A stretch of 18,657 bases of DNA from a virus (taxonomy: Duplodnaviria; Heunggongvirae; Uroviricota; Caudoviricetes), in IMG/VR virus record IMGVR_UViG_2923344815_000006; one strand, 5' to 3'. Below are positions 1 to 17,289 of this stretch, piece by piece. Under the pieces are notes generated by a model, which worked only from the letters and a program-made list of their open reading frames with translations, did no database searches and was not told the origin of the DNA. The first letter of the stretch is position 1, and each line of letters begins with the position of its first letter. The position numbers and the translations under genes are program-made.

Positions 1-504
1 TTACTGATAGTGTTTTATGTTCAGATAATGCCCGATGACCTTGTCATGCAGCTCCACCGATTTTGAGAACGACAGTGACTTCCGTCCCAGCCTTGCCAGA
101 TGTTGTCTCAGATTCAGATTATGTCGCTCAATGCGCTGAGTGTAACGCTTGCTGATAACGTGCAGCTTTCCCTTCAGGCGTGATTCATACAGCGGCCAGC
201 CATCCGTCATCCATACCACGACCTCAAAGGCCGACAGCAGGCTCAGAAGACGCGCCAGTGTGGCCAGAGTGCGTTCACCGAAAACGTGCGCCACAACTGT
301 CCTCCGTATCCTGTCATACGCGTAAAACAGCCAGCGCTGACGTGATTTAGCACCGACGTAGCCCCACTGTTCGTCCATTTCCGCGCAGACAATCACATCA
401 CTGCCCGGTTGTATGCGCGAGGTTACCGACTGCGGCCTGAGTTTTTTAAGTGACGTAAAACCGTGTTGAGGCCAACGCCCATAATGCGGGCAGTTGCCCG
501 GCAT
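1..504 (-). CDS. insB: IS1 transposase InsB (made as InsAB fusion by frameshift)
   Basis: 167-aa translation recognised as IS1 InsB; overlaps insA in the -1 frame as in IS1. Confidence 0.9.
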
Positions 505-698
505 CCAACGCCATTCATGGCCATATCAATGATTTTCTGGTGCGTACCGGGTTGAGAAGCGGTGTAAGTGAACTGCAGTTGCCATGTTTTACGGCAGTGA
601 GAGCAGAGATAGCGCTGATGTCCGGCGGTGCTTTTGCCGTTACGCACCACCCCGTCAGTAGCTGAACAGGAGGGACAGCTGATAGAAACAGAAGCCAC
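423..698 (-). CDS. insA: IS1 protein InsA
   Basis: 91-aa translation ([23 protein letters not shown]...) recognised as IS1 InsA with zinc-finger cysteines. Confidence 0.9.
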
Positions 699-912
699 TG
701 GAGCACCTCAAAAACACCATCATACACTAAATCAGTAAGTTGGCAGCATCACCCACCATGCAGATAGTTAGCAATTCTTTAGTATCTTTTCTGCTCACAC
801 CAACCCCCTTTAGCGTTGTTTAGAATGGCAATCATCATATATCCAAGACATGGCATTTGGTACATAGCTTGGGTCGGGATTTCAAATCCGATCCCCGTTG
901 ATGGGGCCGTTA

Positions 913-1290
913 CAGTACGCGCATATCCGCTTTATGTGAAACAGGAAGATTTTTCTGATATCACTGCCACAGCAAAACACCAATTTCGTGACCAGTACGC
1001 GCGCGAGGGGTATCAGTTGCAAAAATTTTGCAACTACGTCCGACCAGTACGCACACGATGGCGGGGGATACCATGAAACTGTTCTCTACACGAGACAGAG
1101 TGGTGGTGATGTGTTGATTATCGGCGTATATGCGCACAGGACGCGCTATGACGATGTTTTATGCGGGTACACCAATCACATGTATCTGATGTGATAAATC
1201 GTGTTACATGACATCTCATGTTGTGCTGGTGGTTATCACGACGTTCTGAATCTGGCCTTTGCCTGATATTTTGCGACAAGTACGCGCGCG
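913..1290. repeat. Cluster of four copies of a (C/A)AGTACGCGCGCG-like motif plus a perfect 19-bp palindrome, in a non-coding region
   Basis: Motif copies at 913-922, 992-1005, 1044-1057 and 1277-1290; palindrome GTTGCAAAAATTTTGCAAC at 1016-1034; only short overlapping ORFs in the region. Confidence 0.5.
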
Positions 1291-1622
1291 TAGCATCGAA
1301 ATTATCGGATGGCGTATGCTGCTGGCAATATGAAGACCGATAGTATTAACCGAAAAGCGATTAAGGAGTGCCAACTTTTCAGTAGAGAAACTAGCCAGCA
1401 TAGGAAAATGTAGAAATTACCCAATTAATAGGTAAAAGTTATTGACACAGCCTGTAGTGGATAACGATATGAATAAAAACCACATATAGTGGTTTTTCGT
1501 GAGTGATGATAGTATCTATGTTAGTTTCCTAAGTAACTGTGCATTGACATGTGGATAACTTCGGATAGAGTTACAGGCAACCGAGCCCGATCCTCTGTTT
1601 CTCCGCCGCCGATTTCAGGCAT

Positions 1623-2645
1623 GTGAGTTTCACGGTCGGGCCTTTTATTATCTTTTGTTTCGCCACTATGATTGCCGCAAAGCCTCATAAGGACTATCAC
1701 GAATTGCTAGGATTGCTACTTGAACGTGGCATGATTATCAATGATCGAAATCGTGCGATACGTAAGCTGTCGCAGGTTGGATATTATCGATTGTCAGGTT
1801 TTTGGTACCCATCAAGAATTATTGCGACAACAGATAAAGGTCTTTCGTACAGAACAGACCGATTTCTTGCTGGTACCAGTTTCGAGAAGACGTACGATCT
1901 ATATCTTTTTGACAAAAAACTGCGTCTTTTGATGATTGATGCTATCGAAAGAATAGAGATTCATGTTCGTTCAGTCATCGCGCATGAGGTTGGTCGCAAT
2001 GATCCACTTGCCTACATGTCATCAAAATACATTAATCCAAAATTCTCATCTGCCTTCGAGCATTGGGTGTATAAGCAAAAAGTAAAATTAGACGAAAGCA
2101 GAGATGACTGTATTGAATGGCATCGAAGCCAAGGCAAGGAGATTCCATTTTGGGTGGCGGTGGAGACCTGGGATTTTGGTCAGATGTCTAAATATTATGC
2201 GATGCTTAATGGTCATATGCAGGGGAAAATTATACGTCGTTTTGGCATTGATAATAAGCAGACATTTGCAAAATGGTTGAAGTGCCTTAATCTCATAAGG
2301 AATCGTTGCGCTCACCATTCCAGAATATGGAATAGAAAGCATCCCCGAGTTCCAGTACCGGATAATGAATACTTTGACGGACTTAATCTCCATCCAGAGA
2401 GTTGCGAGAGGATTTTTAGCGCGATCTGTATTATCTGGTACTTAGTTAAACGACTTGGTCCGGGATCAACATGGCTTCGGCAAATTGCAGACCTTATTGA
2501 CTCTAAACCAAATGTTCCCGGATGTGGATATGATTCAATGGGTTTACCTGCTAAAGGATTCCCACGAGAGAGATTCTCTCAGGACTTAGGTTTTGTTATC
2601 GCCGACAACGACCCTGTAGCTGAAGGGCGGAAAGGGAGCGATTGA
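1623..2645 (+). CDS. Abi_2 family abortive-infection protein (AbiD/AbiF-like)
   Basis: N-terminal YHELLGLLLERGMII...YYRLSGFWYP and the RNRCAHHSRIWN motif are typical of the Abi_2 family; visibly AT-rich. Start uncertain (1623 or ATG at 1666). Confidence 0.75.
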   Translation: MSFTVGPFIIFCFATMIAAKPHKDYHELLGLLLERGMIINDRNRAIRKLSQVGYYRLSGFWYPSRIIATTDKGLSYRTDRFLAGTSFEKTYDLYLFDKKLRLLMIDAIERIEIHVRSVIAHEVGRNDPLAYMSSKYINPKFSSAFEHWVYKQKVKLDESRDDCIEWHRSQGKEIPFWVAVETWDFGQMSKYYAMLNGHMQGKIIRRFGIDNKQTFAKWLKCLNLIRNRCAHHSRIWNRKHPRVPVPDNEYFDGLNLHPESCERIFSAICIIWYLVKRLGPGSTWLRQIADLIDSKPNVPGCGYDSMGLPAKGFPRERFSQDLGFVIADNDPVAEGRKGSD

Positions 2646-2674
2646 GCGATAAATATCATTTATACACTGATCAA

Positions 2675-3115
2675 TTACTGAAGCAGCGTATTGATTCTTT
2701 TAATATTGTTACCCTGACGCTTCCACGCGCTGTAAATGTCTTTATCCCACGCTTTACCAGCTTTTGTTTGGTAGCCTGCTTCATTGAGCCGTTCCGCTAT
2801 CACACGCCCATTATCAAATCCCTGTCGGATGGTATCGGCAATGATCTTTATAACTGCCGTTTCGTTATATGGCTTTGGTGGGATGTTCGGCTTTCCGGCA
2901 ATAAGCGACGCAGCGGCTTTTTCCATGCGCTCCACCAGCCCAAGCATTCGTGAATCAATAGACTTTTCCGGCTGTCCCAGCTTCATGCGAATCGCATCAA
3001 CAAGCCAGGAGGTTTTATCCCCTCCAGAAGCGAGAACAGACCGATTAAACTCATCCTGCAATTCAGATGGGATGCGGAACGCGACCAGATTAGATTTGCT
3101 CATTGCAAAGACCAT
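2675..3115 (-). CDS. Hypothetical DNA-binding protein (RHH-like N-terminus; C-terminal LNEAGYQTKAGKAW recombinase-domain-like motif)
   Basis: 146-aa ORF convergent with the Abi gene, ending next to iteron block A; alternative ATG at 3103 (MSKSNL...). Confidence 0.55.
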   Translation of the reverse strand: MVFAMSKSNLVAFRIPSELQDEFNRSVLASGGDKTSWLVDAIRMKLGQPEKSIDSRMLGLVERMEKAAASLIAGKPNIPPKPYNETAVIKIIADTIRQGFDNGRVIAERLNEAGYQTKAGKAWDKDIYSAWKRQGNNIKRINTLLQ

Positions 3116-3216
3116 ATCAGTGAGTAATATCCATACAGTATACCACTGTATAACACTGTTATACGCTCAAATATCAGCCAGAAAATAACGGACCAATCAC
3201 AAAGCTATCGCTGTGT

Positions 3217-3338
3217 TGTTGGTTCAGAGCTGGGCTGTGTTGGTTCAAAATGAGTTGATGTTGGTTCAATATTTCAGAAAAAACACAATAAAAACAACGA
3301 TCTTTACAAATTGAACCAACTGAACCAACTGAACCAAC
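3217..3338. repeat. Iteron block A (origin-like): 3 direct TGTTGGTTCA repeats, AT-rich spacer, 3 tandem TGAACCAAC repeats
   Basis: Direct repeats at 3217, 3238 and 3259 (21-bp spacing); tandem inverse-orientation repeats at 3312-3338; near-identical block at 10049-10160. Confidence 0.8.
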
Positions 3339-3374
3339 ACCTTTTTGCTTATCTATATAATCTGAGAGGCAGAA

Positions 3375-3662
3375 ATGATAAGGGACAGGAAAGCTGAAGA
3401 ACTGGAGTCAAAAGGGCTATACCGGAGAGCTGCCGCACGATGGGCAGAAGTCATGATGCTGGCAGATGGCGATAAAGAACGTGAACATGCAGCAAACAGA
3501 CGCTCTGAATGTATCCGTAAGGCGGCACGCCCACCAGCAACTACAGACAGATTCGGAGATTTAAGACAGGCAGTTAAGCGGACTCATTCGGCTCTTGGTA
3601 TGGATGAGGAAGCGAGAGGGTATTTCAGGCGTTATCGCGATAAAGATTGCCAGAGACAGTAA
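3375..3662 (+). CDS. PerC-family transcriptional regulator-like protein
   Basis: 95-aa ORF; ELESKGLYRRAAARWAEVMM...RRSECIRKA resembles the PerC family common in E. coli prophages; GAGAGG Shine-Dalgarno upstream. Confidence 0.6.
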   Translation: MIRDRKAEELESKGLYRRAAARWAEVMMLADGDKEREHAANRRSECIRKAARPPATTDRFGDLRQAVKRTHSALGMDEEARGYFRRYRDKDCQRQ

Positions 3663-3920
3663 TGCTCTCTCTGTTTTGGCAAATTACCCCTCACTTTGAA
3701 GGGATCGGAGCTATAAAAATGGTGTTATCCGGCTTCCTGCATTGCAGGTTTTCGAAAGAATCAATGGGTTAGGTTATCGTGCAAATTTGCACTCTGCCAG
3801 CCAACGCAATTTCTCGTTGGCGGAAATATCAGGTATTTACTGAACGAACGGTCTACCCGCCTGTTCAACTACCAGTTGTACATGGCTGCTTTATGTGCAA
3901 ATGGTGGTGAGAGAAAATTG

Positions 3921-4022
3921 TTTGGGGGTACTTTTGGGGGTATCTCCAAAGATGTAACTGGAAAATGTCTTTATATATCAATGTATTTTTATTGTTTGTT
4001 TTGTTCCTATTATCGCACCATT
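3921..4022 (+). other. Distal att junction of the integrative element (arm-type sites plus imperfect core copy), inverted relative to thrW
   Basis: TTTGGGGGTACTTTTGGGGGTAT (3921-3943) matches rc of 17079-17104 next to the integrase gene; TCCTATTATCGCACCA (4005-4020) matches the tRNA 3-prime end with one 1-nt gap. Confidence 0.6.
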
Positions 4023-4254
4023 AAAATCAAAGAGTTACCCCATATTTAAATACACCACGTTTCCTCCTGTGCCGTATTTGTGCCATTGTAACCTTGGCAA
4101 TTCATCAAAATACTGTTCTGACATCAGGCAGTGCAGGTGCAGACATTTAAGCCAATTGCTGCCGCCATTCTTTGACGTAGTCAATCAGGGCGCGGAGCTG
4201 GTGATGCTGCCAACTTACTGATTTAGTGTATGATGGTGTTTTTGAGGTGCTCCA

Positions 4255-4530
4255 GTGGCTTCTGTTTCTATCAGCTGTCCCTCCTGTTCAGCTACTGACG
4301 GGGTGGTGCGTAACGGCAAAAGCACCGCCGGACATCAGCGCTATCTCTGCTCTCACTGCCGTAAAACATGGCAACTGCAGTTCACTTACACCGCTTCTCA
4401 ACCCGGTACGCACCAGAAAATCATTGATATGGCCATGAATGGCGTTGGATGCCGGGCAACTGCCCGCATTATGGGCGTTGGCCTCAACACGGTTTTACGT
4501 CACTTAAAAAACTCAGGCCGCAGTCGGTAA
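4255..4530 (+). CDS. insA: IS1 protein InsA
   Basis: Translation identical to the InsA ORF of copy 1. Confidence 0.9.
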
Positions 4531-4952
4531 CCTCGCGCATACAACCGGGCAGTGATGTGATTGTCTGCGCGGAAATGGACGAACAGTGGGGCTACGTCGG
4601 TGCTAAATCACGTCAGCGCTGGCTGTTTTACGCGTATGACAGGATACGGAGGACAGTTGTGGCGCACGTTTTCGGTGAACGCACTCTGGCCACACTGGCG
4701 CGTCTTCTGAGCCTGCTGTCGGCCTTTGAGGTCGTGGTATGGATGACGGATGGCTGGCCGCTGTATGAATCACGCCTGAAGGGAAAGCTGCACGTTATCA
4801 GCAAGCGTTACACTCAGCGCATTGAGCGACATAATCTGAATCTGAGACAACATCTGGCAAGGCTGGGACGGAAGTCACTGTCGTTCTCAAAATCGGTGGA
4901 GCTGCATGACAAGGTCATCGGGCATTATCTGAACATAAAACACTATCAGTAA
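4449..4952 (+). CDS. insB: IS1 transposase InsB
   Basis: Translation identical to the InsB ORF of copy 1. Confidence 0.9.
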
Positions 4953-4970
4953 GTTGGAGTCACTACCTGC

Positions 4971-5546
4971 ATGGTGTACTTTTCAATTTATTTTTGTGCA
5001 TACATGGTAGTCCCAGATGAGTTTGAACATGGCAGTATTATTTATTCCATAACATTCTATTTTTTAGAGCTAACACCAATTTTGGCTATCCTTTTGGCAA
5101 TACATATTTATTTTTCCTTAAAAAAAGAATCGACTAATTGGGAGAAGGTATGGAGAGACAGAGGATTTCTAACATCACCTAAAGATGATGCATATGAGAG
5201 TGATTTTTCTGACTTTATAACAAACTACTACTCCAGCGAACAATTCAAAAATAGACTGTCTGATGTTTGGGAAACAGCAATGTATTCCATAGGGATTATA
5301 TTATTGATACTTACTGGTATCGCTCAATATGTTTTTAACATTGACTTATCATTAAATCCTGAAAATTTAATATCGCCATTGATTTTTGGTGAGATATTGA
5401 TCTTCTCATTCGGAATTTTCTTGAGTGTTGTTCTCTGCTCATTATGCAAACTACTGACTAACAGGTATCCAGGTGAAGCAAGGAGAGCAAGAAAGGCAAA
5501 TCCATATTATCTTTTATTTCCTAATGGAGACAGCAGAGATATCTAA
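4971..5546 (+). CDS. Small integral membrane protein (3-4 predicted TM helices), 5-prime end disrupted by IS1
   Basis: 191-aa AT-rich ORF with hydrophobic stretches at about residues 1-13, 23-50, 103-122 and 133-162; starts 4 bp after the IS1 end; its predicted original start and first 15 codons lie at 798..754 on the minus strand. Confidence 0.6.
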   Translation: MVYFSIYFCAYMVVPDEFEHGSIIYSITFYFLELTPILAILLAIHIYFSLKKESTNWEKVWRDRGFLTSPKDDAYESDFSDFITNYYSSEQFKNRLSDVWETAMYSIGIILLILTGIAQYVFNIDLSLNPENLISPLIFGEILIFSFGIFLSVVLCSLCKLLTNRYPGEARRARKANPYYLLFPNGDSRDI

Positions 5547-5564: not shown

Positions 5565-7670
5565 TTATTGAGCTTCTTTTTGTGATGCCTGTGCGACTCT
5601 GGTGAGCGATTGTGTGACCGTACTGATCGCTCTGTCATATGCTGTGCTACCTTTTGGCGTATTTGCCAGACGTAACAAGGCATTTCGTATAACAGGGCTT
5701 TCGTATGCCTTCGCTGCTCCGCCTACGGCACCAGCAGCAGGAACAACAAACGCAGCCGTTTTTAGCATCCCCGCTAATACTGCTGCGTTTATGATGCCAC
5801 CACCAACTAACAATCCATAAAGCTGCTGACCATTTAAGTTTTGAACGTTCGCTTTTGCCGCGTGTCTTGTATCGTTGAGGTATTTAATAACGCCGTCCAG
5901 TTCCTTTCCATGTACGCCTTTAAAGAAAGTTGCTGATTGCTTCCTGTTCCGGTGTAACGCATTAATAAACTTCTCAACACTGATATTTCCAGACGGATCA
6001 GTCGCCTTATCTACAGCATTCTGAACTATGGCTGCTCGTGCGTTTTGCCTACCATTGTCATCCAGAAGCCTGTAAAGCTGAGAACGTTCTGATGGGCTTT
6101 GGCTAAAAACGAGTTTTGTTACATCCTCAGGCGTGGCCTTGCCGCTGGCTATTGCCTTTTGAACGCGCGTTCTTCCCATCATGTCATTGAATTTAGACCA
6201 TGAGCGATCAACCCTTGCCATATTAATGGCTTCGTCTGCTCCAAGATTTTTGGCTACGGCTTTTTTCATATCCGCCGTATATGCCTTGTAGATAATATCG
6301 CTGGCTTTCTGGAGCGTATCTTTATCAACAGTGTCAGATGACGCCATAAATCGCTTTCGAAGATCGGTTCTGTTTTCCCTCGCCAGACGCAGGTCATTTG
6401 GTCCGCTGGTGATATCGTCTTTAAATTGCTGCAAGACTTTTACCGCGGCTCTATCCTGAGATTTGCCCGGGCGGCTTAACACGGCAATCTGATTGTCGAT
6501 AGCTTTTACCGTGTTTGAGAGATCGACAGGGGTATCCCCCATAGCGTCAATTATGCGGTTATATCGCTTTCCTGCTGCCTCAATGAATTTTTGTTGCCCT
6601 TTAGTCGCAGATTCATAAAGCTGTTTATCAGAAATGCCACCCAGACCATCGCTAAATGTTCTGACTAAATTTTCTCGTGCTTGTTGTTGATTCAGCCGAT
6701 TCTTACCGGTTCCAAAAAAAGGAACTCTTTCGCCTAATGTCTGAGCCTGACTCTGCATAAAGGTTTTATCTTTCAGCATGTCACTGGTCATTAACGGCAG
6801 ATTTCTTTCCGATGCAAAGTCGACAGCAGCCTTTGCTTCAGGCGACATATCACCACGAACAGCCCTCGAAACCGCACTCGCTGTATTTTCCAGCCCCTTA
6901 CCAATACCACCAATGCCAGCAGAAATTACCGTTTGTAACGGATCAATATCTTCTCCACCAGCAAGACTGGTGGCTCCCTGTAGTGCTAAATCTGTAGCTG
7001 CTGATTTTCCTATGGCACTAAGCACCGTTCCAGCCCTGCCCGCTGGTGTAAACGCCAACGCATTAGCAAGAAACGAGGTCAGGTCTTGCGGTGATAAACC
7101 CGGCTTGTTCAGGGCATAATCACCTGATGGCAGAGAAACGATAGTATTCCCCTTCTCATCCTGCCTTAATGTCGCCCCCATTCCCTGAAGAATCTTTTCC
7201 TGAGACGCGTCAGAGCCGAAAAGTTGAGACCATCCAGCCTTTAGGGCATCCATGCTTAGTGAGTTCAATTCTGGGGCAGAGGCGACATTTTGCAGTCTCT
7301 CCATCTCTGGAGTCATTCGGCTTTCGCCTGTTATAGCATCGCGCATCGCAGCCCCAAGACTGGCTCCCTGTTCTGCTGAACGCTCAAGCCCCTCTCTTTG
7401 CTGAGTAGCTAACTTTGCATACCCTGACGCAAGAGAATTATCAGATGATGTATGTTGAATATTTTGAGTTGCTGATTGGGATCGGTCTATTTCATTCGTT
7501 GATGGTAGTGGATAGGCAGCATAAAAAGCCTGCTTAGCCTGCTCTACACTTTCTCCGGCTTGCGGGGCCACGACTTCATTGAAGTATTGCTCCTGAGCCT
7601 GCGCTTTTTGTTCTGGTGCTAACGCCTGATACTGTGGAGAGGCGATAACATCTTTCCATGCTTTAGCCAT
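5565..7670 (-). CDS. Uncharacterised 701-aa Ala/Gln/Ser-rich protein with C-terminal hydrophobic Gly/Ala-rich segment
   Basis: Long ORF coupled to the upstream gene by a TAATG stop-start overlap; no enzymatic motif I recognise; hydrophobic segment LYGLLVGGGIINAAVLAGMLKTAAFVVPAAGAVGGAAKAY near the C-terminus. Confidence 0.7.
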   Translation of the reverse strand: MAKAWKDVIASPQYQALAPEQKAQAQEQYFNEVVAPQAGESVEQAKQAFYAAYPLPSTNEIDRSQSATQNIQHTSSDNSLASGYAKLATQQREGLERSAEQGASLGAAMRDAITGESRMTPEMERLQNVASAPELNSLSMDALKAGWSQLFGSDASQEKILQGMGATLRQDEKGNTIVSLPSGDYALNKPGLSPQDLTSFLANALAFTPAGRAGTVLSAIGKSAATDLALQGATSLAGGEDIDPLQTVISAGIGGIGKGLENTASAVSRAVRGDMSPEAKAAVDFASERNLPLMTSDMLKDKTFMQSQAQTLGERVPFFGTGKNRLNQQQARENLVRTFSDGLGGISDKQLYESATKGQQKFIEAAGKRYNRIIDAMGDTPVDLSNTVKAIDNQIAVLSRPGKSQDRAAVKVLQQFKDDITSGPNDLRLARENRTDLRKRFMASSDTVDKDTLQKASDIIYKAYTADMKKAVAKNLGADEAINMARVDRSWSKFNDMMGRTRVQKAIASGKATPEDVTKLVFSQSPSERSQLYRLLDDNGRQNARAAIVQNAVDKATDPSGNISVEKFINALHRNRKQSATFFKGVHGKELDGVIKYLNDTRHAAKANVQNLNGQQLYGLLVGGGIINAAVLAGMLKTAAFVVPAAGAVGGAAKAYESPVIRNALLRLANTPKGSTAYDRAISTVTQSLTRVAQASQKEAQ

Positions 7671-9148
7671 TAATCACCCCATAGTGAAGAAAAGTTACTG
7701 CTGGCTGCTGGCTGTGATACCTGCTCAGATTGCGGCAATGTCTGCGACGAAGAAGCAGTTCCTCTGTCAACTGCTGAAATAACCCGCAAAGCATCATAAG
7801 TTCGACCAGAAGCAGCTTTCAGCGAATTGAACTGGTTTTCCATCTTCCGGCGCTTGGTATCAATGGTTTTTGTGGAATCACCAGGCTGAGGGAAATACAT
7901 TTGATAATATTTGGACATTTCAGCTGGTAGGATAGATGCCCCTGTTTCCTGACGGAGTATTGCCATTATTGCGTCATTAGCATTAACAACGTATTGCTGC
8001 TCTGCTGGGCTGAGCGTTAAGTTAGCCAGCGTCCCATTACCCAAAGCATTATTAATGATCGCCACTCGCTGTGGGCTAAGCTGGTCTTTCAGTGTATCTA
8101 TTGAATCAAGAGCATCCCTAACCCTGTATGCAAATCCAGCAGCTTTTTTAGCCCCTTCTGGCGACTTTTCCATGATCTTTTGGGCTGTTGGCAAAGCTAT
8201 TGGACGAAACCCATCTCCAGATATTGGCTGGTTTAGTTTTCCCTGCTCTTCACTTCCGTCTGTGTAGTATTTTGTGACAGTGCCATCATCGTTTTCTCTA
8301 ACACTCATTAATTTTTTGGCGTTTGTATTAATTCCAGCCGCTGCCGCAAATGCCGCCGCCCCCTCTGGATCCGCCTTTAACATTTGAGCGTACTGATTGT
8401 AATTCTGCATTGCTGCTGTTGGTGCATATGCTGACGTTAACGCATTTGCTCGGCTAATATCCTGCCCTCTCGCCTGAAGTGCTTCGCCAGCCTGATTGCT
8501 GCGGATTGTCTCTGCCAACTTGCCACGCTCAATATCCCGACCTTCCATTTGATCTTTGATATCGAAATACTTCTCATGACCGAGAGAAAACAGCGCCAGA
8601 TTACCTGCGAAATGCTGGAAGCCCTGCGGGTCATTAACCTGCATTTCAGCAATAGTTTCTGGAGGGATACCTAAACGACGCATCTCCTGCTCATTATCCA
8701 TCATGAACCTGCCAAATGCGCCCTGACCAAGCGATGAGGCTACCTGTGCTTTGAGCGCCAGATTGCCATAATCATCCCTTTGAGCATCATCGACATAACT
8801 CATCCCTTTACGGACTTCCTCAAACTCTTCTGGGAATGCTGTAATAAGATTACGCATCTGCTCCCTGTCACCGGACGCATAAGCATCTGCATAAGCTTTC
8901 TGGAATGCCGCTTTACGCTCCTGCTGTTGCTGCTGCTTATAAATATCAGCAACGCCAGCCAGACCACGAAGACCTGTCAGAGCAACGTTATTTGCACCTG
9001 AGCGAGCCAGTTCATTGTTTTCGCGGATCAGACCAAGCGTTGCGTTAATGTCGCTTGCCTTTGGCGCATTCTCATTTTGCGTACCGATGCCAGCCAGAAA
9101 ACCACCAGAATTAATACCCTGTTGCCACGTAGCCATTGATTTACCCAC
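7670..9148 (-). CDS. Uncharacterised 492-aa Ala/Gln-rich low-complexity protein
   Basis: Long ORF; probable true start is ATG at 9136 (MATWQQ...) rather than the GTG at 9148; poly-Q stretch and Ala-rich tracts. Confidence 0.7.
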   Translation of the reverse strand: MGKSMATWQQGINSGGFLAGIGTQNENAPKASDINATLGLIRENNELARSGANNVALTGLRGLAGVADIYKQQQQQERKAAFQKAYADAYASGDREQMRNLITAFPEEFEEVRKGMSYVDDAQRDDYGNLALKAQVASSLGQGAFGRFMMDNEQEMRRLGIPPETIAEMQVNDPQGFQHFAGNLALFSLGHEKYFDIKDQMEGRDIERGKLAETIRSNQAGEALQARGQDISRANALTSAYAPTAAMQNYNQYAQMLKADPEGAAAFAAAAGINTNAKKLMSVRENDDGTVTKYYTDGSEEQGKLNQPISGDGFRPIALPTAQKIMEKSPEGAKKAAGFAYRVRDALDSIDTLKDQLSPQRVAIINNALGNGTLANLTLSPAEQQYVVNANDAIMAILRQETGASILPAEMSKYYQMYFPQPGDSTKTIDTKRRKMENQFNSLKAASGRTYDALRVISAVDRGTASSSQTLPQSEQVSQPAASSNFSSLWGD

Positions 9149-10185: not shown

Positions 10186-11316
10186 TCATTCTTCAGATGA
10201 GTTGTAATCTCCTGGCTGGTAATTGAGTACATAAACGTTTATTTGTCGTCCCTGAATACGTGGTGATTTTCTTTGGTATCCACGACCGCTGTTTGGTGGG
10301 GTTAGCATCCCGGCTTTTTTCAACACTTCAGCAAACTGTTTTGCGTTGAAACCACATGCGATCTCCTTTTCAAATGTGGCCGGGAATGTGTAGAAAATCA
10401 TTGGGCTTTCGTCATGTTCTCCACGCTGACGGTATCCGGCTAAATCTTTGATGGGCAAATCTGCCGGGCTGTATGGAAATGGTGCAAAACGGCTAAGCCC
10501 ATAGGCATTAAGAAATGCCTCCGTTTGTTCAATAATCTGCTGATGCTCTTTGTTACCTGTGCCGAACTCGCGCAACCATGCGTTATAGCTGTGCTGTATC
10601 GCATCACGGCATGTCTGAGCATCCCAGCCTGTTACAACCTCGCCTAACAACAATGCGGCCTCCAGAATGGCAAATCGCGCGGCTACACGGTGAACCTGCT
10701 CACCATAATCGGATGGGATCAGGCTTCTCCATCTGCTTTCGCAGTCACGAACAGTTTTAATAGCCTGTTGCTGGTGGTCTGCCAGCCATTTAATCCACTC
10801 ACGCCCGGACGCGCCGTGGTGATGCTGGTAAGCGTCTTTCAGTGCGTCTGCGTGCTGTTTTCCGTTCTGGTAATCGTGAAAGCGTACTGCTTTACTCAAC
10901 GGAATATTCAGCAGTCGCACCATTTGCCCGGCTTTGGTTTTTCGCCCGGAAGTAGCGATAAATGTTTCTAAATCCATTTCTCCGGTGCTGATTGCCACTG
11001 TACGCCAGCGTTTTAGATCCCGGTTTCCACCATCTTTAGCGCCTTGCAGTTTCCCTACACCGTTAAATAACGCATAGGCAGACTGTGAAACACTGACAGG
11101 ATCAGCGCCCTGACCAACTTCATCAAGCGGCATTAGTCCGTCATTGTGGGCGGCAGCTTCATTTGCCAGCCCCAGCGCGGTTCCGTACCACGTCAGCCGC
11201 AGTAAATCAGGGTTGCCGTATAAGCTGCTCGCCACGTTTGCCGTGGTGGTCTTACCTGCGCTCGACTGCTCATAGAAATGAATGCCGAACCCGTCAGCGC
11301 CCACCAGCCCAATCAA
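10186..11316 (-). CDS. DUF927/SF3 helicase-like replication protein (P4 alpha / PICI Rep C-terminal type), apparently 5-prime-truncated
   Basis: Walker A (SSAGKTT) within ...AAHNDGLMPLDEVGQ...RWRTVAISTGE...KAGQMVRLLNIP, typical of the DUF927 helicase domain; ORF-track start is a TTG; in-frame stop at 11374-11376 with no ATG upstream. Confidence 0.65.
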   Translation of the reverse strand: MIGLVGADGFGIHFYEQSSAGKTTTANVASSLYGNPDLLRLTWYGTALGLANEAAAHNDGLMPLDEVGQGADPVSVSQSAYALFNGVGKLQGAKDGGNRDLKRWRTVAISTGEMDLETFIATSGRKTKAGQMVRLLNIPLSKAVRFHDYQNGKQHADALKDAYQHHHGASGREWIKWLADHQQQAIKTVRDCESRWRSLIPSDYGEQVHRVAARFAILEAALLLGEVVTGWDAQTCRDAIQHSYNAWLREFGTGNKEHQQIIEQTEAFLNAYGLSRFAPFPYSPADLPIKDLAGYRQRGEHDESPMIFYTFPATFEKEIACGFNAKQFAEVLKKAGMLTPPNSGRGYQRKSPRIQGRQINVYVLNYQPGDYNSSEE

Positions 11317-15833: not shown

Positions 15834-17048
15834 TCATGCGTGTTTTTCAAACACCATATGCACCACATTTCCGCCATGCTCGAGAGAATCCATATAGTCG
15901 GCATACCATTGAAGCATCTCCCGCCGTCCATCCAGATATTGCGCATGGTTGTATGTGCCACGAATTGAGTTCTTATCAACGTGAGCGAGCTGCGTTTCTA
16001 TCCACGCGGTGTTATAGCCCTGCTCATGCAAAATCGTGCTCATAGTGTGTCGGAACCCATGACCAGTTACACGTCCAGCGTAGCCAATGCGCTTAAACAC
16101 TTGGTTTATGCTGGCCTCACTCATTGTTTTCCTTGGATCATTGCGCCCGGGAAACATAAGAGGGTAATTGCCTGTTATTTCTCTAATCTTCCCAATAAGC
16201 GAAAGAGCCTGCTCAGACAATGGCACAATATGAGGCCGCCGCATTTTCATACGTGAAGCGGGTATCTCCCATATAGCCTTGTTGAAATCAATTTCATCCC
16301 ATAATGCGCCACGTAGTTCGCCAGTTCGCAAGCCGGTGATAATCAGTAGGCGAGCCGCCATAACAACCAATGCGCTTCCTGAGTAACTGGATAATGCCTT
16401 GAAAAAATCAGGTAATTCTTTGGTCGTAAGGAAAGGGTAATGATTAGATTCATGGCCTTGCATCGCGCTAGTAAGGTCTGGTGCAGGGTTATACTCTGCG
16501 CGACCAGTGACTATTGCATAGCGGAAAACTTCCCCGCACCGCTGCCTCACTTTTTTGGCTTTTTCTGTCGCACCGCGCCCCTCGATGCGCCGCAGCACAT
16601 TCAGAAGTTCAAGTGGTTTGATTTCGGCGATTGGTTTTTTGCCAATGTAAGGGAACACATCTTTGTTGAAGGCTTCGAGGATGTCTGAAGCATAACCAGC
16701 AGACCATTTTTTTAATTTGCTGCTGTGCCACTCAAGGGCAATATCTTTGAAGGTGTTGTTTAACTGCGTTTCCCGGGCAATCTTTTCCTCTCGTTTCGCT
16801 TCCATCGGATCGATACCACCAGCGATACCTCTTTTCGCATCTTCACGTTTTGCCCGAGCATCGGCTAGAGTAACCTCAGGATACACACCTAGTGCCAATA
16901 GCTTCTCTTTACCTGCTACACGATATTTAAGTCGCCAGTATTTACCTCCATTAGGTTTTACCAAGAGATACAAACCGCCACCATCGGCCAGCTTGTAAGC
17001 CTTCTCTTTTGGCTTGGCTGTGTCTATTTGACGGGCATTGAGTTTCAC
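15834..17048 (-). CDS. P4-type tyrosine integrase (DUF4102 arm-binding N-terminus)
   Basis: 404-aa product; N-terminal ...AKPKEKAYKLADGGGLYLLVKPNGGKYWRLKYR... and C-terminal R..HGFRHT..Y-type catalytic region; GTG start with GGAGG Shine-Dalgarno; adjacent to the tRNA. Confidence 0.9.
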   Translation of the reverse strand: MKLNARQIDTAKPKEKAYKLADGGGLYLLVKPNGGKYWRLKYRVAGKEKLLALGVYPEVTLADARAKREDAKRGIAGGIDPMEAKREEKIARETQLNNTFKDIALEWHSSKLKKWSAGYASDILEAFNKDVFPYIGKKPIAEIKPLELLNVLRRIEGRGATEKAKKVRQRCGEVFRYAIVTGRAEYNPAPDLTSAMQGHESNHYPFLTTKELPDFFKALSSYSGSALVVMAARLLIITGLRTGELRGALWDEIDFNKAIWEIPASRMKMRRPHIVPLSEQALSLIGKIREITGNYPLMFPGRNDPRKTMSEASINQVFKRIGYAGRVTGHGFRHTMSTILHEQGYNTAWIETQLAHVDKNSIRGTYNHAQYLDGRREMLQWYADYMDSLEHGGNVVHMVFEKHA

Positions 17049-17213: not shown

Positions 17214-17289
17214 TGGTGCCGATAATAGGAGTCGAACCTACGACCTTCGCATTACGAATGCGCTGCTCTACCAACTGAGCTATATCGGC
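17214..17289 (-). tRNA. thrW: tRNA-Thr (anticodon CGT)
   Basis: Reverse complement reads GCCGATATAGCTCAGTTGGTAGAGCAGCGCATTCGTAATGCGAAGGTCGTAGGTTCGACTCCTATTATCGGCACCA: canonical cloverleaf, CGT anticodon, CCA end. Confidence 0.95.

Follow-up and report, generated by a model that had tools for sequence, protein, structure and literature searches.

The 18,657-nucleotide viral record IMGVR_UViG_2923344815_000006 (hereafter the window, meaning the whole 18.6-kb stretch of DNA that was analysed) carries an Abi_2 family gene, and it is nearly certain that positions 1578-1657, which end 10 nt before the start codon of this gene, encode a conserved structured RNA tied to it. We consider it likely that positions 1544-2645, which comprise a promoter, this leader RNA and the Abi gene, form a two-part AbiF-type (type III-like) toxin-antitoxin or abortive-infection cassette lodged in the cargo slot of a thrW island. 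An earlier reading of the sequence, the original prediction, had already proposed an RNA partner and a type III system, and this general idea stood, given that an Abi_2 gene is indeed preceded by a covarying 5' RNA, whereas its assignment of the partner to the repeat-rich region further upstream did not.

The Abi_2 protein and its leader RNA

The homology of the protein is established. As the original prediction had stated, the gene at 1668-2645 (+ strand; 325 aa, WP_021542399.1) belongs to the Abi_2 family (Pfam PF07751, E 2e-52, 178 bits against a gathering cut-off of 25.6), and PADLOC assigns its product to AbiD (E 7e-58). PbAbiF (PDB 8VZ6_A) is a full-length homologue (E 4e-36, query residues 4-301), which places the protein in the AbiD/F family of HEPN proteins. 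Its HEPN Rx4H motif (R211-H216) is encoded at 2298-2315; residues R211, N212, H216 and H217 are invariant across 25 Abi homologues, and R211 and H216 are aligned with the catalytic R210 and H215 of PbAbiF (PMC12373285). Besides Abi_2, no Pfam match was found in the protein, which does not qualify as a toxin of the ToxN/AbiQ family. RefSeq and homologue alignments both place its start at the ATG at 1668, and not at the GTG at 1623 that opens the longest open reading frame (ORF); no obvious Shine-Dalgarno sequence precedes the ORF. A second E. coli Abi allele, found at locus L003, shares 51% aa identity with that of the window, and 80 loci encoding Abi homologues at 41-68% identity were gathered from other species of Enterobacterales, Pseudomonas, Vibrio, Pasteurellaceae, Burkholderiales, Desulfobacterota and Nitrospirae.

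In nearly all of these 80 loci, the start codon is preceded by the same succession of elements, namely -35 and -10 boxes, the sequence YAAYNGYGCCCRRYCCYCUG, a variable hairpin, and the sequence UYAYGNYYGGGCCUUCUUGUUUYUGG. A covariance model, named R1, was seeded with 30 such sequences, none of them enterobacterial. The structure returned by RNAalifold for this seed is the one drawn by hand, with an 8-bp P1 stem, a CYC/Y internal loop and a 9-bp P2 stem, and compensatory changes are found in 12 of the 17 base pairs. Paired cells amount to 95.7%, against at most 44% when the partners are slid by 1-3 columns, and none of 500 shuffles reached the observed values. The alignment of 81 matches fitted to R1 (73 distinct rows) gives the same picture of covariation.

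Searched with filters off, the window contains a single significant R1 match, at 1578-1657 on the + strand (39.3 bits; E values of 2.8e-11 and 7.6e-10 were obtained in separate searches). This candidate antitoxin RNA of 80 bases, which we call an R1-type AbiF RNA, is composed of the P1 stem (1585-1592 paired with 1634-1641), the internal loop CUC (1593-1595, with the bulge C1633), the variable P2 hairpin (1596-1632) and a U-rich tail (1642-1657). Its linkage to the Abi gene is strict: among the 80 loci from other species, R1 matches 75, each at a single place that lies directly 5' of the gene and on its strand, in Gamma- and Betaproteobacteria, Desulfobacterota and Nitrospirae. It also matches once each the un-rearranged E. 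coli locus L001 and the second-allele locus L003, and does not match the islands devoid of Abi gene at loci L004-L006. A covariance search upstream of Abi_2 homologues, which the original prediction had suggested, thus revealed the anticipated conserved structure, but at 1578-1657 and not in the repeat region. The sequences upstream of the two E. coli alleles are identical up to position 1597 and diverge thereafter; the long hairpin is kept in both, with a compensatory change from A-U to G-C in its stem. R1-type elements, not RF03085-type ones (the catalogued abiF RNA motif of Rfam, discussed below), also accompany Abi homologues at 30-35% identity in two human-gut phage-like contigs. Moreover, three Pasteurellaceae loci missed by R1 (L076, L082 and L086, from Mannheimia, Lonepinella and Rodentibacter) carry upstream of the gene a divergent hairpin, GUGGCGUAGCCCCUG...AAGCUACGUCCUUGCC, in the same layout, which indicates that the RNA class is broader than the R1 model.

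A sigma-70-like promoter lies immediately upstream of the RNA at 1544-1571 (+ strand), with TTGACA at 1544-1549, a 16-nt spacer and TAGAGT at 1566-1571, i.e., a match at 10 of 12 positions. A comparable promoter was found in 69 of the 76 RNA-bearing loci that could be scanned (74 from other species, the window and E. coli L003), and in 65 of these 69 its -10 box ends 5-6 nt before the RNA; the same search placed 300 nt further upstream as a control retrieved a promoter in one of 76 loci. This placement of the -10 box implies that the R1 RNA starts at the +1 of its own promoter. The spacer of the window promoter also holds a perfect DnaA box, TGTGGATAA = TTATCCACA (1550-1558), which is preceded at a distance of 94 nt by a near-perfect one, AGTGGATAA (1456-1464), both being embedded in a repeated GTGGATAAC. 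These boxes hint at a control of the cassette by DnaA in E. coli; no conservation of the DnaA box was seen in other genera. Finally, Rfam reported a weak 'lactis-plasmid' element at 1451-1540, but its 18 bits fall below the gathering score of 70, and we take it as a chance match.

Known AbiF RNAs and stand-alone copies in phages

AbiF proteins act as toxic HEPN RNases, and a non-coding RNA encoded in cis neutralises them, as exemplified by PbAbiF-AbiFr (PDB 8VZ6) and AbiFCd-RCd22 (PMC12373285; PMC12737573; PMC13064643). The former pairs an AbiF protein of Prevotellaceae with its non-coding RNA, according to the summaries of Zilberzwige-Tal et al. (2025) given in these three papers. We recovered the locus of PbAbiF itself from rumen metagenomes (L090/L091; 100% aa identity), in which RF03085 is found at 58.5 bits, 17 nt 5' of the ATG, with a U tract on its 3' side; its consensus there reads CCCGCC-A-AGC-CUCUCAACGAU-GCU-CAAAUC-GGCGGG. 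Like the RNA of the window, it is present in single copy, as a hairpin that is closed by a GC-rich stem (CCCG.../...CGGG), carries a CUCU motif and a U-rich tail, and stands 10-17 nt before the start codon; a UCAA-like 3' junction is also common to both. The two RNAs differ in architecture: the PbAbiF RNA follows the 37-nt RF03085 motif, with a 6-bp P1, a bulged A, a 3-bp P2, an 11-nt loop and a CAAAUC 3' bulge, whereas in that of the window P1 has 8 bp, the internal loop is 3-nt/1-nt and the variable P2 hairpin has at least 9 bp. C32 and U38 of AbiFr are the residues described as blocking the active site (PMC12737573); if the RNA is numbered from the A of ACUAGAA, immediately 5' of the abiF motif (L090:302-362), they delimit the 3' bulge CAAAUGU of this motif. 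At the corresponding place, R1-type RNAs have only a 1-nt bulge together with invariant U-A and G-U pairs.

The second system, AbiFCd-RCd22 of the C. difficile phages phi027 and phiC2, consists of a promoter, a non-coding RNA, a terminator-like U tract and the abiF gene, the latter being co-transcribed by read-through (PMC12373285). The window shows the same order of elements and a location on a mobile element, and the two proteins are 29% identical. RCd22 differs in that it has two RF03085 motifs (one of which was detected in phiC2) and a separate terminator, whereas in the window a single R1-type hairpin would itself provide the terminator through its stem and tail.

RF03085 itself, the abiF RNA motif reportedly described by Weinberg et al. 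in 2017, resembles R1 in its Abi_2 association, its position directly 5' of the gene, its CCCG-type stem and its CUCU sequence, and differs from it in secondary structure and length. The Rfam model performed well as a control, scoring 38-58 bits in six PbAbiF loci and 37.6 bits in phiC2; at its gathering score it matched none of 20 proteobacterial loci, and no Rfam family gave a credible match in the window. Conversely, R1 scores about 15 bits on the PbAbiF loci, a weak match that is made through the stem and tail at the same position. We thus regard the window RNA as the equivalent of AbiFr in position, and probably in evolution, with a distinct and larger structure. The R1 form is absent from Rfam 15 and looks new, although it may already have been described by Zilberzwige-Tal et al. 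(2025).

Two other groups of systems deserve comparison. First, ToxIN, CptIN and TenpIN likewise have an RNase toxin preceded by an RNA antitoxin and a terminator; they differ in their toxin fold (ToxN/AbiQ instead of HEPN Abi_2) and in their antitoxin, which is made of tandem repeats of about 36 nt that have no equivalent in the window. Phages can escape ToxIN by carrying mimics of its antitoxin RNA (PMC3475682). Second, lactococcal AbiD, AbiD1 and AbiF (AbiD in PADLOC) belong to the same protein family as the window Abi; they are plasmid systems of Firmicutes, compared with the window here at the protein level. The sequence upstream of these lactococcal genes is reported to be essential and better conserved than the genes (PMC13064643).

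These precedents also lend some weight to another interpretation, in which 1578-1657 would be solely a cis-acting leader devoid of antitoxin activity in trans, either an intrinsic terminator or attenuator, or a translational gate that would silence the toxic gene until opened by a phage factor, as proposed for the lactococcal abiD1 mRNA. The RNA occupies the position of a 5' untranslated region, 10 nt from the ATG, and its GC-rich stem is followed by a U-rich tract; in addition, RCd22 reduces the transcription of abiF 17-fold in C. difficile (PMC12373285), and the binding of a phage protein to the AbiD1 mRNA activates AbiD1 translation (PMC13064643). Nevertheless, a terminator has no need for loop and tail sequences that are invariant across phyla, and homologous proteins were solved or purified with the upstream RNA bound (PDB 8VZ6; PMC12373285). 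Cis and trans roles can moreover coexist, as they do in RCd22, and we regard an exclusively cis-acting leader as unlikely, all the more so as it hardly explains the existence of copies that stand alone in phages.

These copies came from an RNA-first pattern scan of IMG/VR, which returned 72 loci, 41 of them with genuine R1 matches. An Abi_2 gene follows in 13 of the 41, and a fourteenth contig (L229) ends 27 nt after the element. For 26 others, no Abi homologue was detected in the stretch inspected with a hidden Markov model of the family at E<=1, a search in which positive controls scored from 1e-129 to 1e-166. These orphan elements (R1 scores of 34-75 bits) are carried by IMG/VR contigs L177, L180, L181, L183, L184, L186, L188, L189, L193-L195, L199, L208, L209, L213, L217, L218, L220-L222, L230, L233, L235, L236, L238 and L241. 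They sit in short gaps between co-directional phage genes, mostly lack a promoter of their own, and are flanked by genes that include those for terminase, portal/adaptor, tail protein, scaffold, Ant and fibre-like proteins. In a T7-like phage, one of them separates the capsid gene from the tail tubular A gene; the nearest named relatives of this phage (Atoyac10, phiA014L and KBC54) do not have the element, and the orphan is thus accessory there and not a core terminator. An orphan RF03085 RNA has likewise been noted in cyanophage S-CREM1 (PMC9964418). The occurrence of copies without an Abi gene suggests that the RNA class acts in trans, and therefore favours an antitoxin over a purely cis-acting leader.

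Based on homology, layout and these phage orphans, the RNA encoded at 1578-1657 is, in our judgement, the probable antitoxin of a type III-like pair. A few observations weigh against this assignment. The folding energy of the window copy taken by itself is unremarkable (minimum free energy, z = -1.5), and, given its U-rich tail, the element could be mainly a terminator or attenuator. The search pattern that retrieved the orphans holds part of the sequence fixed, and at most about 15 kb was inspected around each of them. Furthermore, RF03085 matches neither the window nor a canonical R1 copy even at E<=10, so that the transfer of the mechanism from PbAbiF rests on protein homology and position.

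From these comparisons we infer the following course for transcription, termination, binding, toxicity and defence. The dedicated sigma-70 promoter would start transcription at about position 1578, and the first 65-80 nt or so of the transcript would fold into a long hairpin made of the GC-rich P1, the conserved CYC/Y internal loop, the variable P2 and the conserved CCUU(C/U)U... U-rich tail. Most transcripts would probably end at this tail, and those that read through would carry the Abi ORF. By analogy with PbAbiF-AbiFr and AbiFCd-RCd22, the RNA would then bind an AbiF dimer and block its HEPN RNase site (R211/H216). Phage infection may lower the ratio of RNA to protein, thereby freeing the RNase and aborting the infection.

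AbiF-type systems have reportedly been shown of late to be RNA-antitoxin systems and are said to be likely ancestors of Cas13. To our knowledge, the 37-nt abiF motif is so far the sole RNA linked to these systems. We tentatively suggest that R1 could represent a second, uncatalogued class of AbiF antitoxin RNA, larger and with a hypervariable P2, serving an AbiF clade of Proteobacteria, Desulfobacterota and some gut organisms, and that the stand-alone phage copies might be RNA decoys that disarm AbiF, as a counterpart of pseudo-ToxI. If a second RNA architecture does operate with the same protein family, the RNA partner would have diversified while the HEPN protein stayed constant, which bears on the possible evolution of a variable guide from a fixed antitoxin RNA. 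The orphans, if they are decoys, would embody a new RNA-based anti-defence strategy against AbiF. In practical terms, annotation pipelines would gain the means to identify the RNA that accompanies hundreds of AbiD/Abi_2 genes called as 'single-gene' systems in Enterobacteria and Pseudomonas.

The repeat-rich backbone upstream of the cassette

The non-coding interval upstream of the Abi gene extends over 869 bp (799-1667) and is bounded on its other side by the GTG start codon (798, minus strand) of a SieA-like gene. The original prediction rightly saw no convincing ORF in it, as RefSeq annotates nothing there and single-base indels among near-identical E. coli copies break any frame; the small ORFs at 816-1076 and 988-1194 were accordingly rejected as genes, having no Pfam match and being frameshifted by indels between strains. 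The repeats that had drawn attention to the interval are real and confined to its first part (799-1299, without strand assignment). Four copies of a motif had been claimed, and we count three exact copies of MAGTACGCRCRCG (993, 1045 and 1278, all on the + strand) and two degenerate ones (913 and 1137); 0.01 exact copies would be expected, and none of 200 shuffles yielded three. Also confirmed were the palindrome AGTTGCAAAA-A-TTTTGCAACT (1015-1035), 21 nt long in all with the 19 bp first reported as its core, and the inverted GCGCATAT-type elements GCGCATATCCGC (919-930) and GCGTATATGCGC (1124-1135). The description of the region as structured did not hold, as the folding of 880-1300 is close to that of shuffled sequences (z = -0.97 on the + strand and -1.78 on the - strand).

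The distribution of this region is dictated by the island and not by the Abi gene. Of 5,426 complete E. coli genomes searched, 548 contain the initial 500-560 bp of the interval (799 to about 1300/1360), mostly at 95-99% identity, and only 127 carry at least 80% of the whole interval. Homology between islands ends 10-70 nt past the last motif copy (query positions 501-562), and what follows is a variable cargo: the window Abi allele, the second Abi allele (L003), an ImmA/IrrE gene with a small gene (L004), a helix-turn-helix gene (L005) or a 73-aa ORF alone (L006 and L170). The slot between the non-coding backbone and a conserved 146-aa gene followed by perC is, in this family of thrW islands, a hotspot of variable cargo. 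The motif occurs in E. coli island loci with or without an Abi gene, and it was found upstream of none of the Abi homologues in the 80 loci from other species. Cargo-independent conservation, together with this absence from the Abi loci of other species, implies that the repeats belong to the island backbone and are not the partner of Abi.

The original prediction had proposed that the whole repeat-rich region of about 820 bp (900-1600) is transcribed as a repeat-bearing, ToxI-like partner of Abi, and the non-random nature of the repeats and their position upstream of an Abi_2 gene speak in its favour. However, the copies are irregularly spaced (80, 52, 92 and 141 nt), Tandem Repeats Finder detected no tandem array in 754-1700, and the region folds no better than its shuffles. 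Locus L170 has lost 53 bp between motif copies 2 and 3, a repeat and the palindrome included. Furthermore, a terminator-like hairpin and the Abi promoter intervene between the repeats and the gene. This hairpin, AAAAACCAC-ATATA-GTGGTTTTT (1475-1497), is an inverted repeat with A and T runs on both sides; it resembles a bidirectional intrinsic terminator, and would insulate the Abi cassette from the backbone. It is found within a cargo-proximal spacer (1300-1543, without strand assignment) that homology breakpoints and identity with L003 show to be common only to islands carrying either of the two Abi alleles. A repeat region acting as the RNA partner is thus essentially excluded, and a ToxI-like repeat RNA, whose chances we rate as negligible, gives way to the single-copy hairpin described above. 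Recognising this avoids mistaking, in this window, a conserved piece of island backbone for an antitoxin.

As for the role of the repeats, we lean towards a DNA-level element of the island, with candidate sites for a regulator, replication or packaging protein, or else a conserved flank of the cargo slot or a recombination junction. In addition to their conservation irrespective of cargo and the break of homology shortly after the last copy, a near-identical last repeat unit, GGGACAAGTACGCGCGCGCGTAGCACC (window 1268-1296), is found again 3' of perC in two loci (L170:4700-4730 and L231:2436-2462), so that copies bracket the module formed by the cargo, the 146-aa gene and perC. The 53-bp deletion of L170 likewise spans the distance between two copies. 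On the other hand, the backbone region has no match in the phage collection. A role of the backbone at the DNA level is compatible with an AbiF cassette downstream of it and is not opposed to it.

Two further candidates in this region were discarded. First, a tRNA-like fragment at 866-905 was dismissed, as ARAGORN reports only thrW in the window. Second, a retron-like reading of the 10-nt inverted repeat TACGCGCGCG/CGCGCGCGTA (996/1283) was abandoned, as the vicinity holds no reverse transcriptase and the sequence simply corresponds to the core, itself palindromic, of the dispersed repeat.

Island setting and IS1 rearrangement

The sequence of the window matches the E. coli 99-3165 chromosome at 100% identity. 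The island that it contains is integrated at the tRNA-Thr gene thrW (17214-17289, ARAGORN), next to which lies a P4-type integrase gene (15834-17048), and its gene content includes the SieA-like gene, the cargo slot, the conserved 146-aa gene, perC, a TOPRIM/DUF927 primase gene and P22-like ejection-protein genes. The DUF927 primase gene is truncated (10186-11316), and the products of the ejection-protein genes (5565-9148) correspond to the PHROGs annotations 'DNA transfer protein' and 'released from the phage upon host infection'. For a satellite-like element, it is unusual to find such P22-like ejection genes and a weakly SieA-like gene alongside a P4-type integrase and a TOPRIM/DUF927 primase. 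No NCBIfam model matched the three proteins tested.

Two IS1 copies, which are 100% inverted repeats of each other, frame the region of interest: the left copy (1-753) runs off the start of the window, and the right one is aligned over 4200-4952 and would end near 4967 at full length. Relative to the un-rearranged strain F5656C1 (locus L001), the segment between them (754-4199) is inverted, and this flipped 3.4-kb segment holds the Abi cassette, the 146-aa gene and perC. The SieA-like gene, which encodes 204 aa and is so named after a weak PHROG match, was split by the rearrangement, as revealed by comparison with L001 and by the IS1 copies: its first 15 codons remain at 754-798 (minus strand, GTG at 798), and its remainder (4968-5546, + strand) is separated from this start by IS1 insertion and inversion. 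The 869-bp interval separates the SieA-like and Abi genes in L001, which, together with the IS1 inverted repeats, corroborates the proposal that this interval was the shared intergenic space of two divergent genes before the inversion. Beyond the left IS1, prpR replaces the island in strain 99-3165, implying that an IS1-mediated deletion also took place.

Finally, an iteron-like array precedes perC on its 5' side. It is composed of three TGTTGGTTCA at 3217, 3238 and 3259 (21-nt spacing), an AT-rich stretch and three tandem inverted TGAACCAAC (3312-3338), and the whole array (3217-3338) could be a replication origin of the island or an operator.

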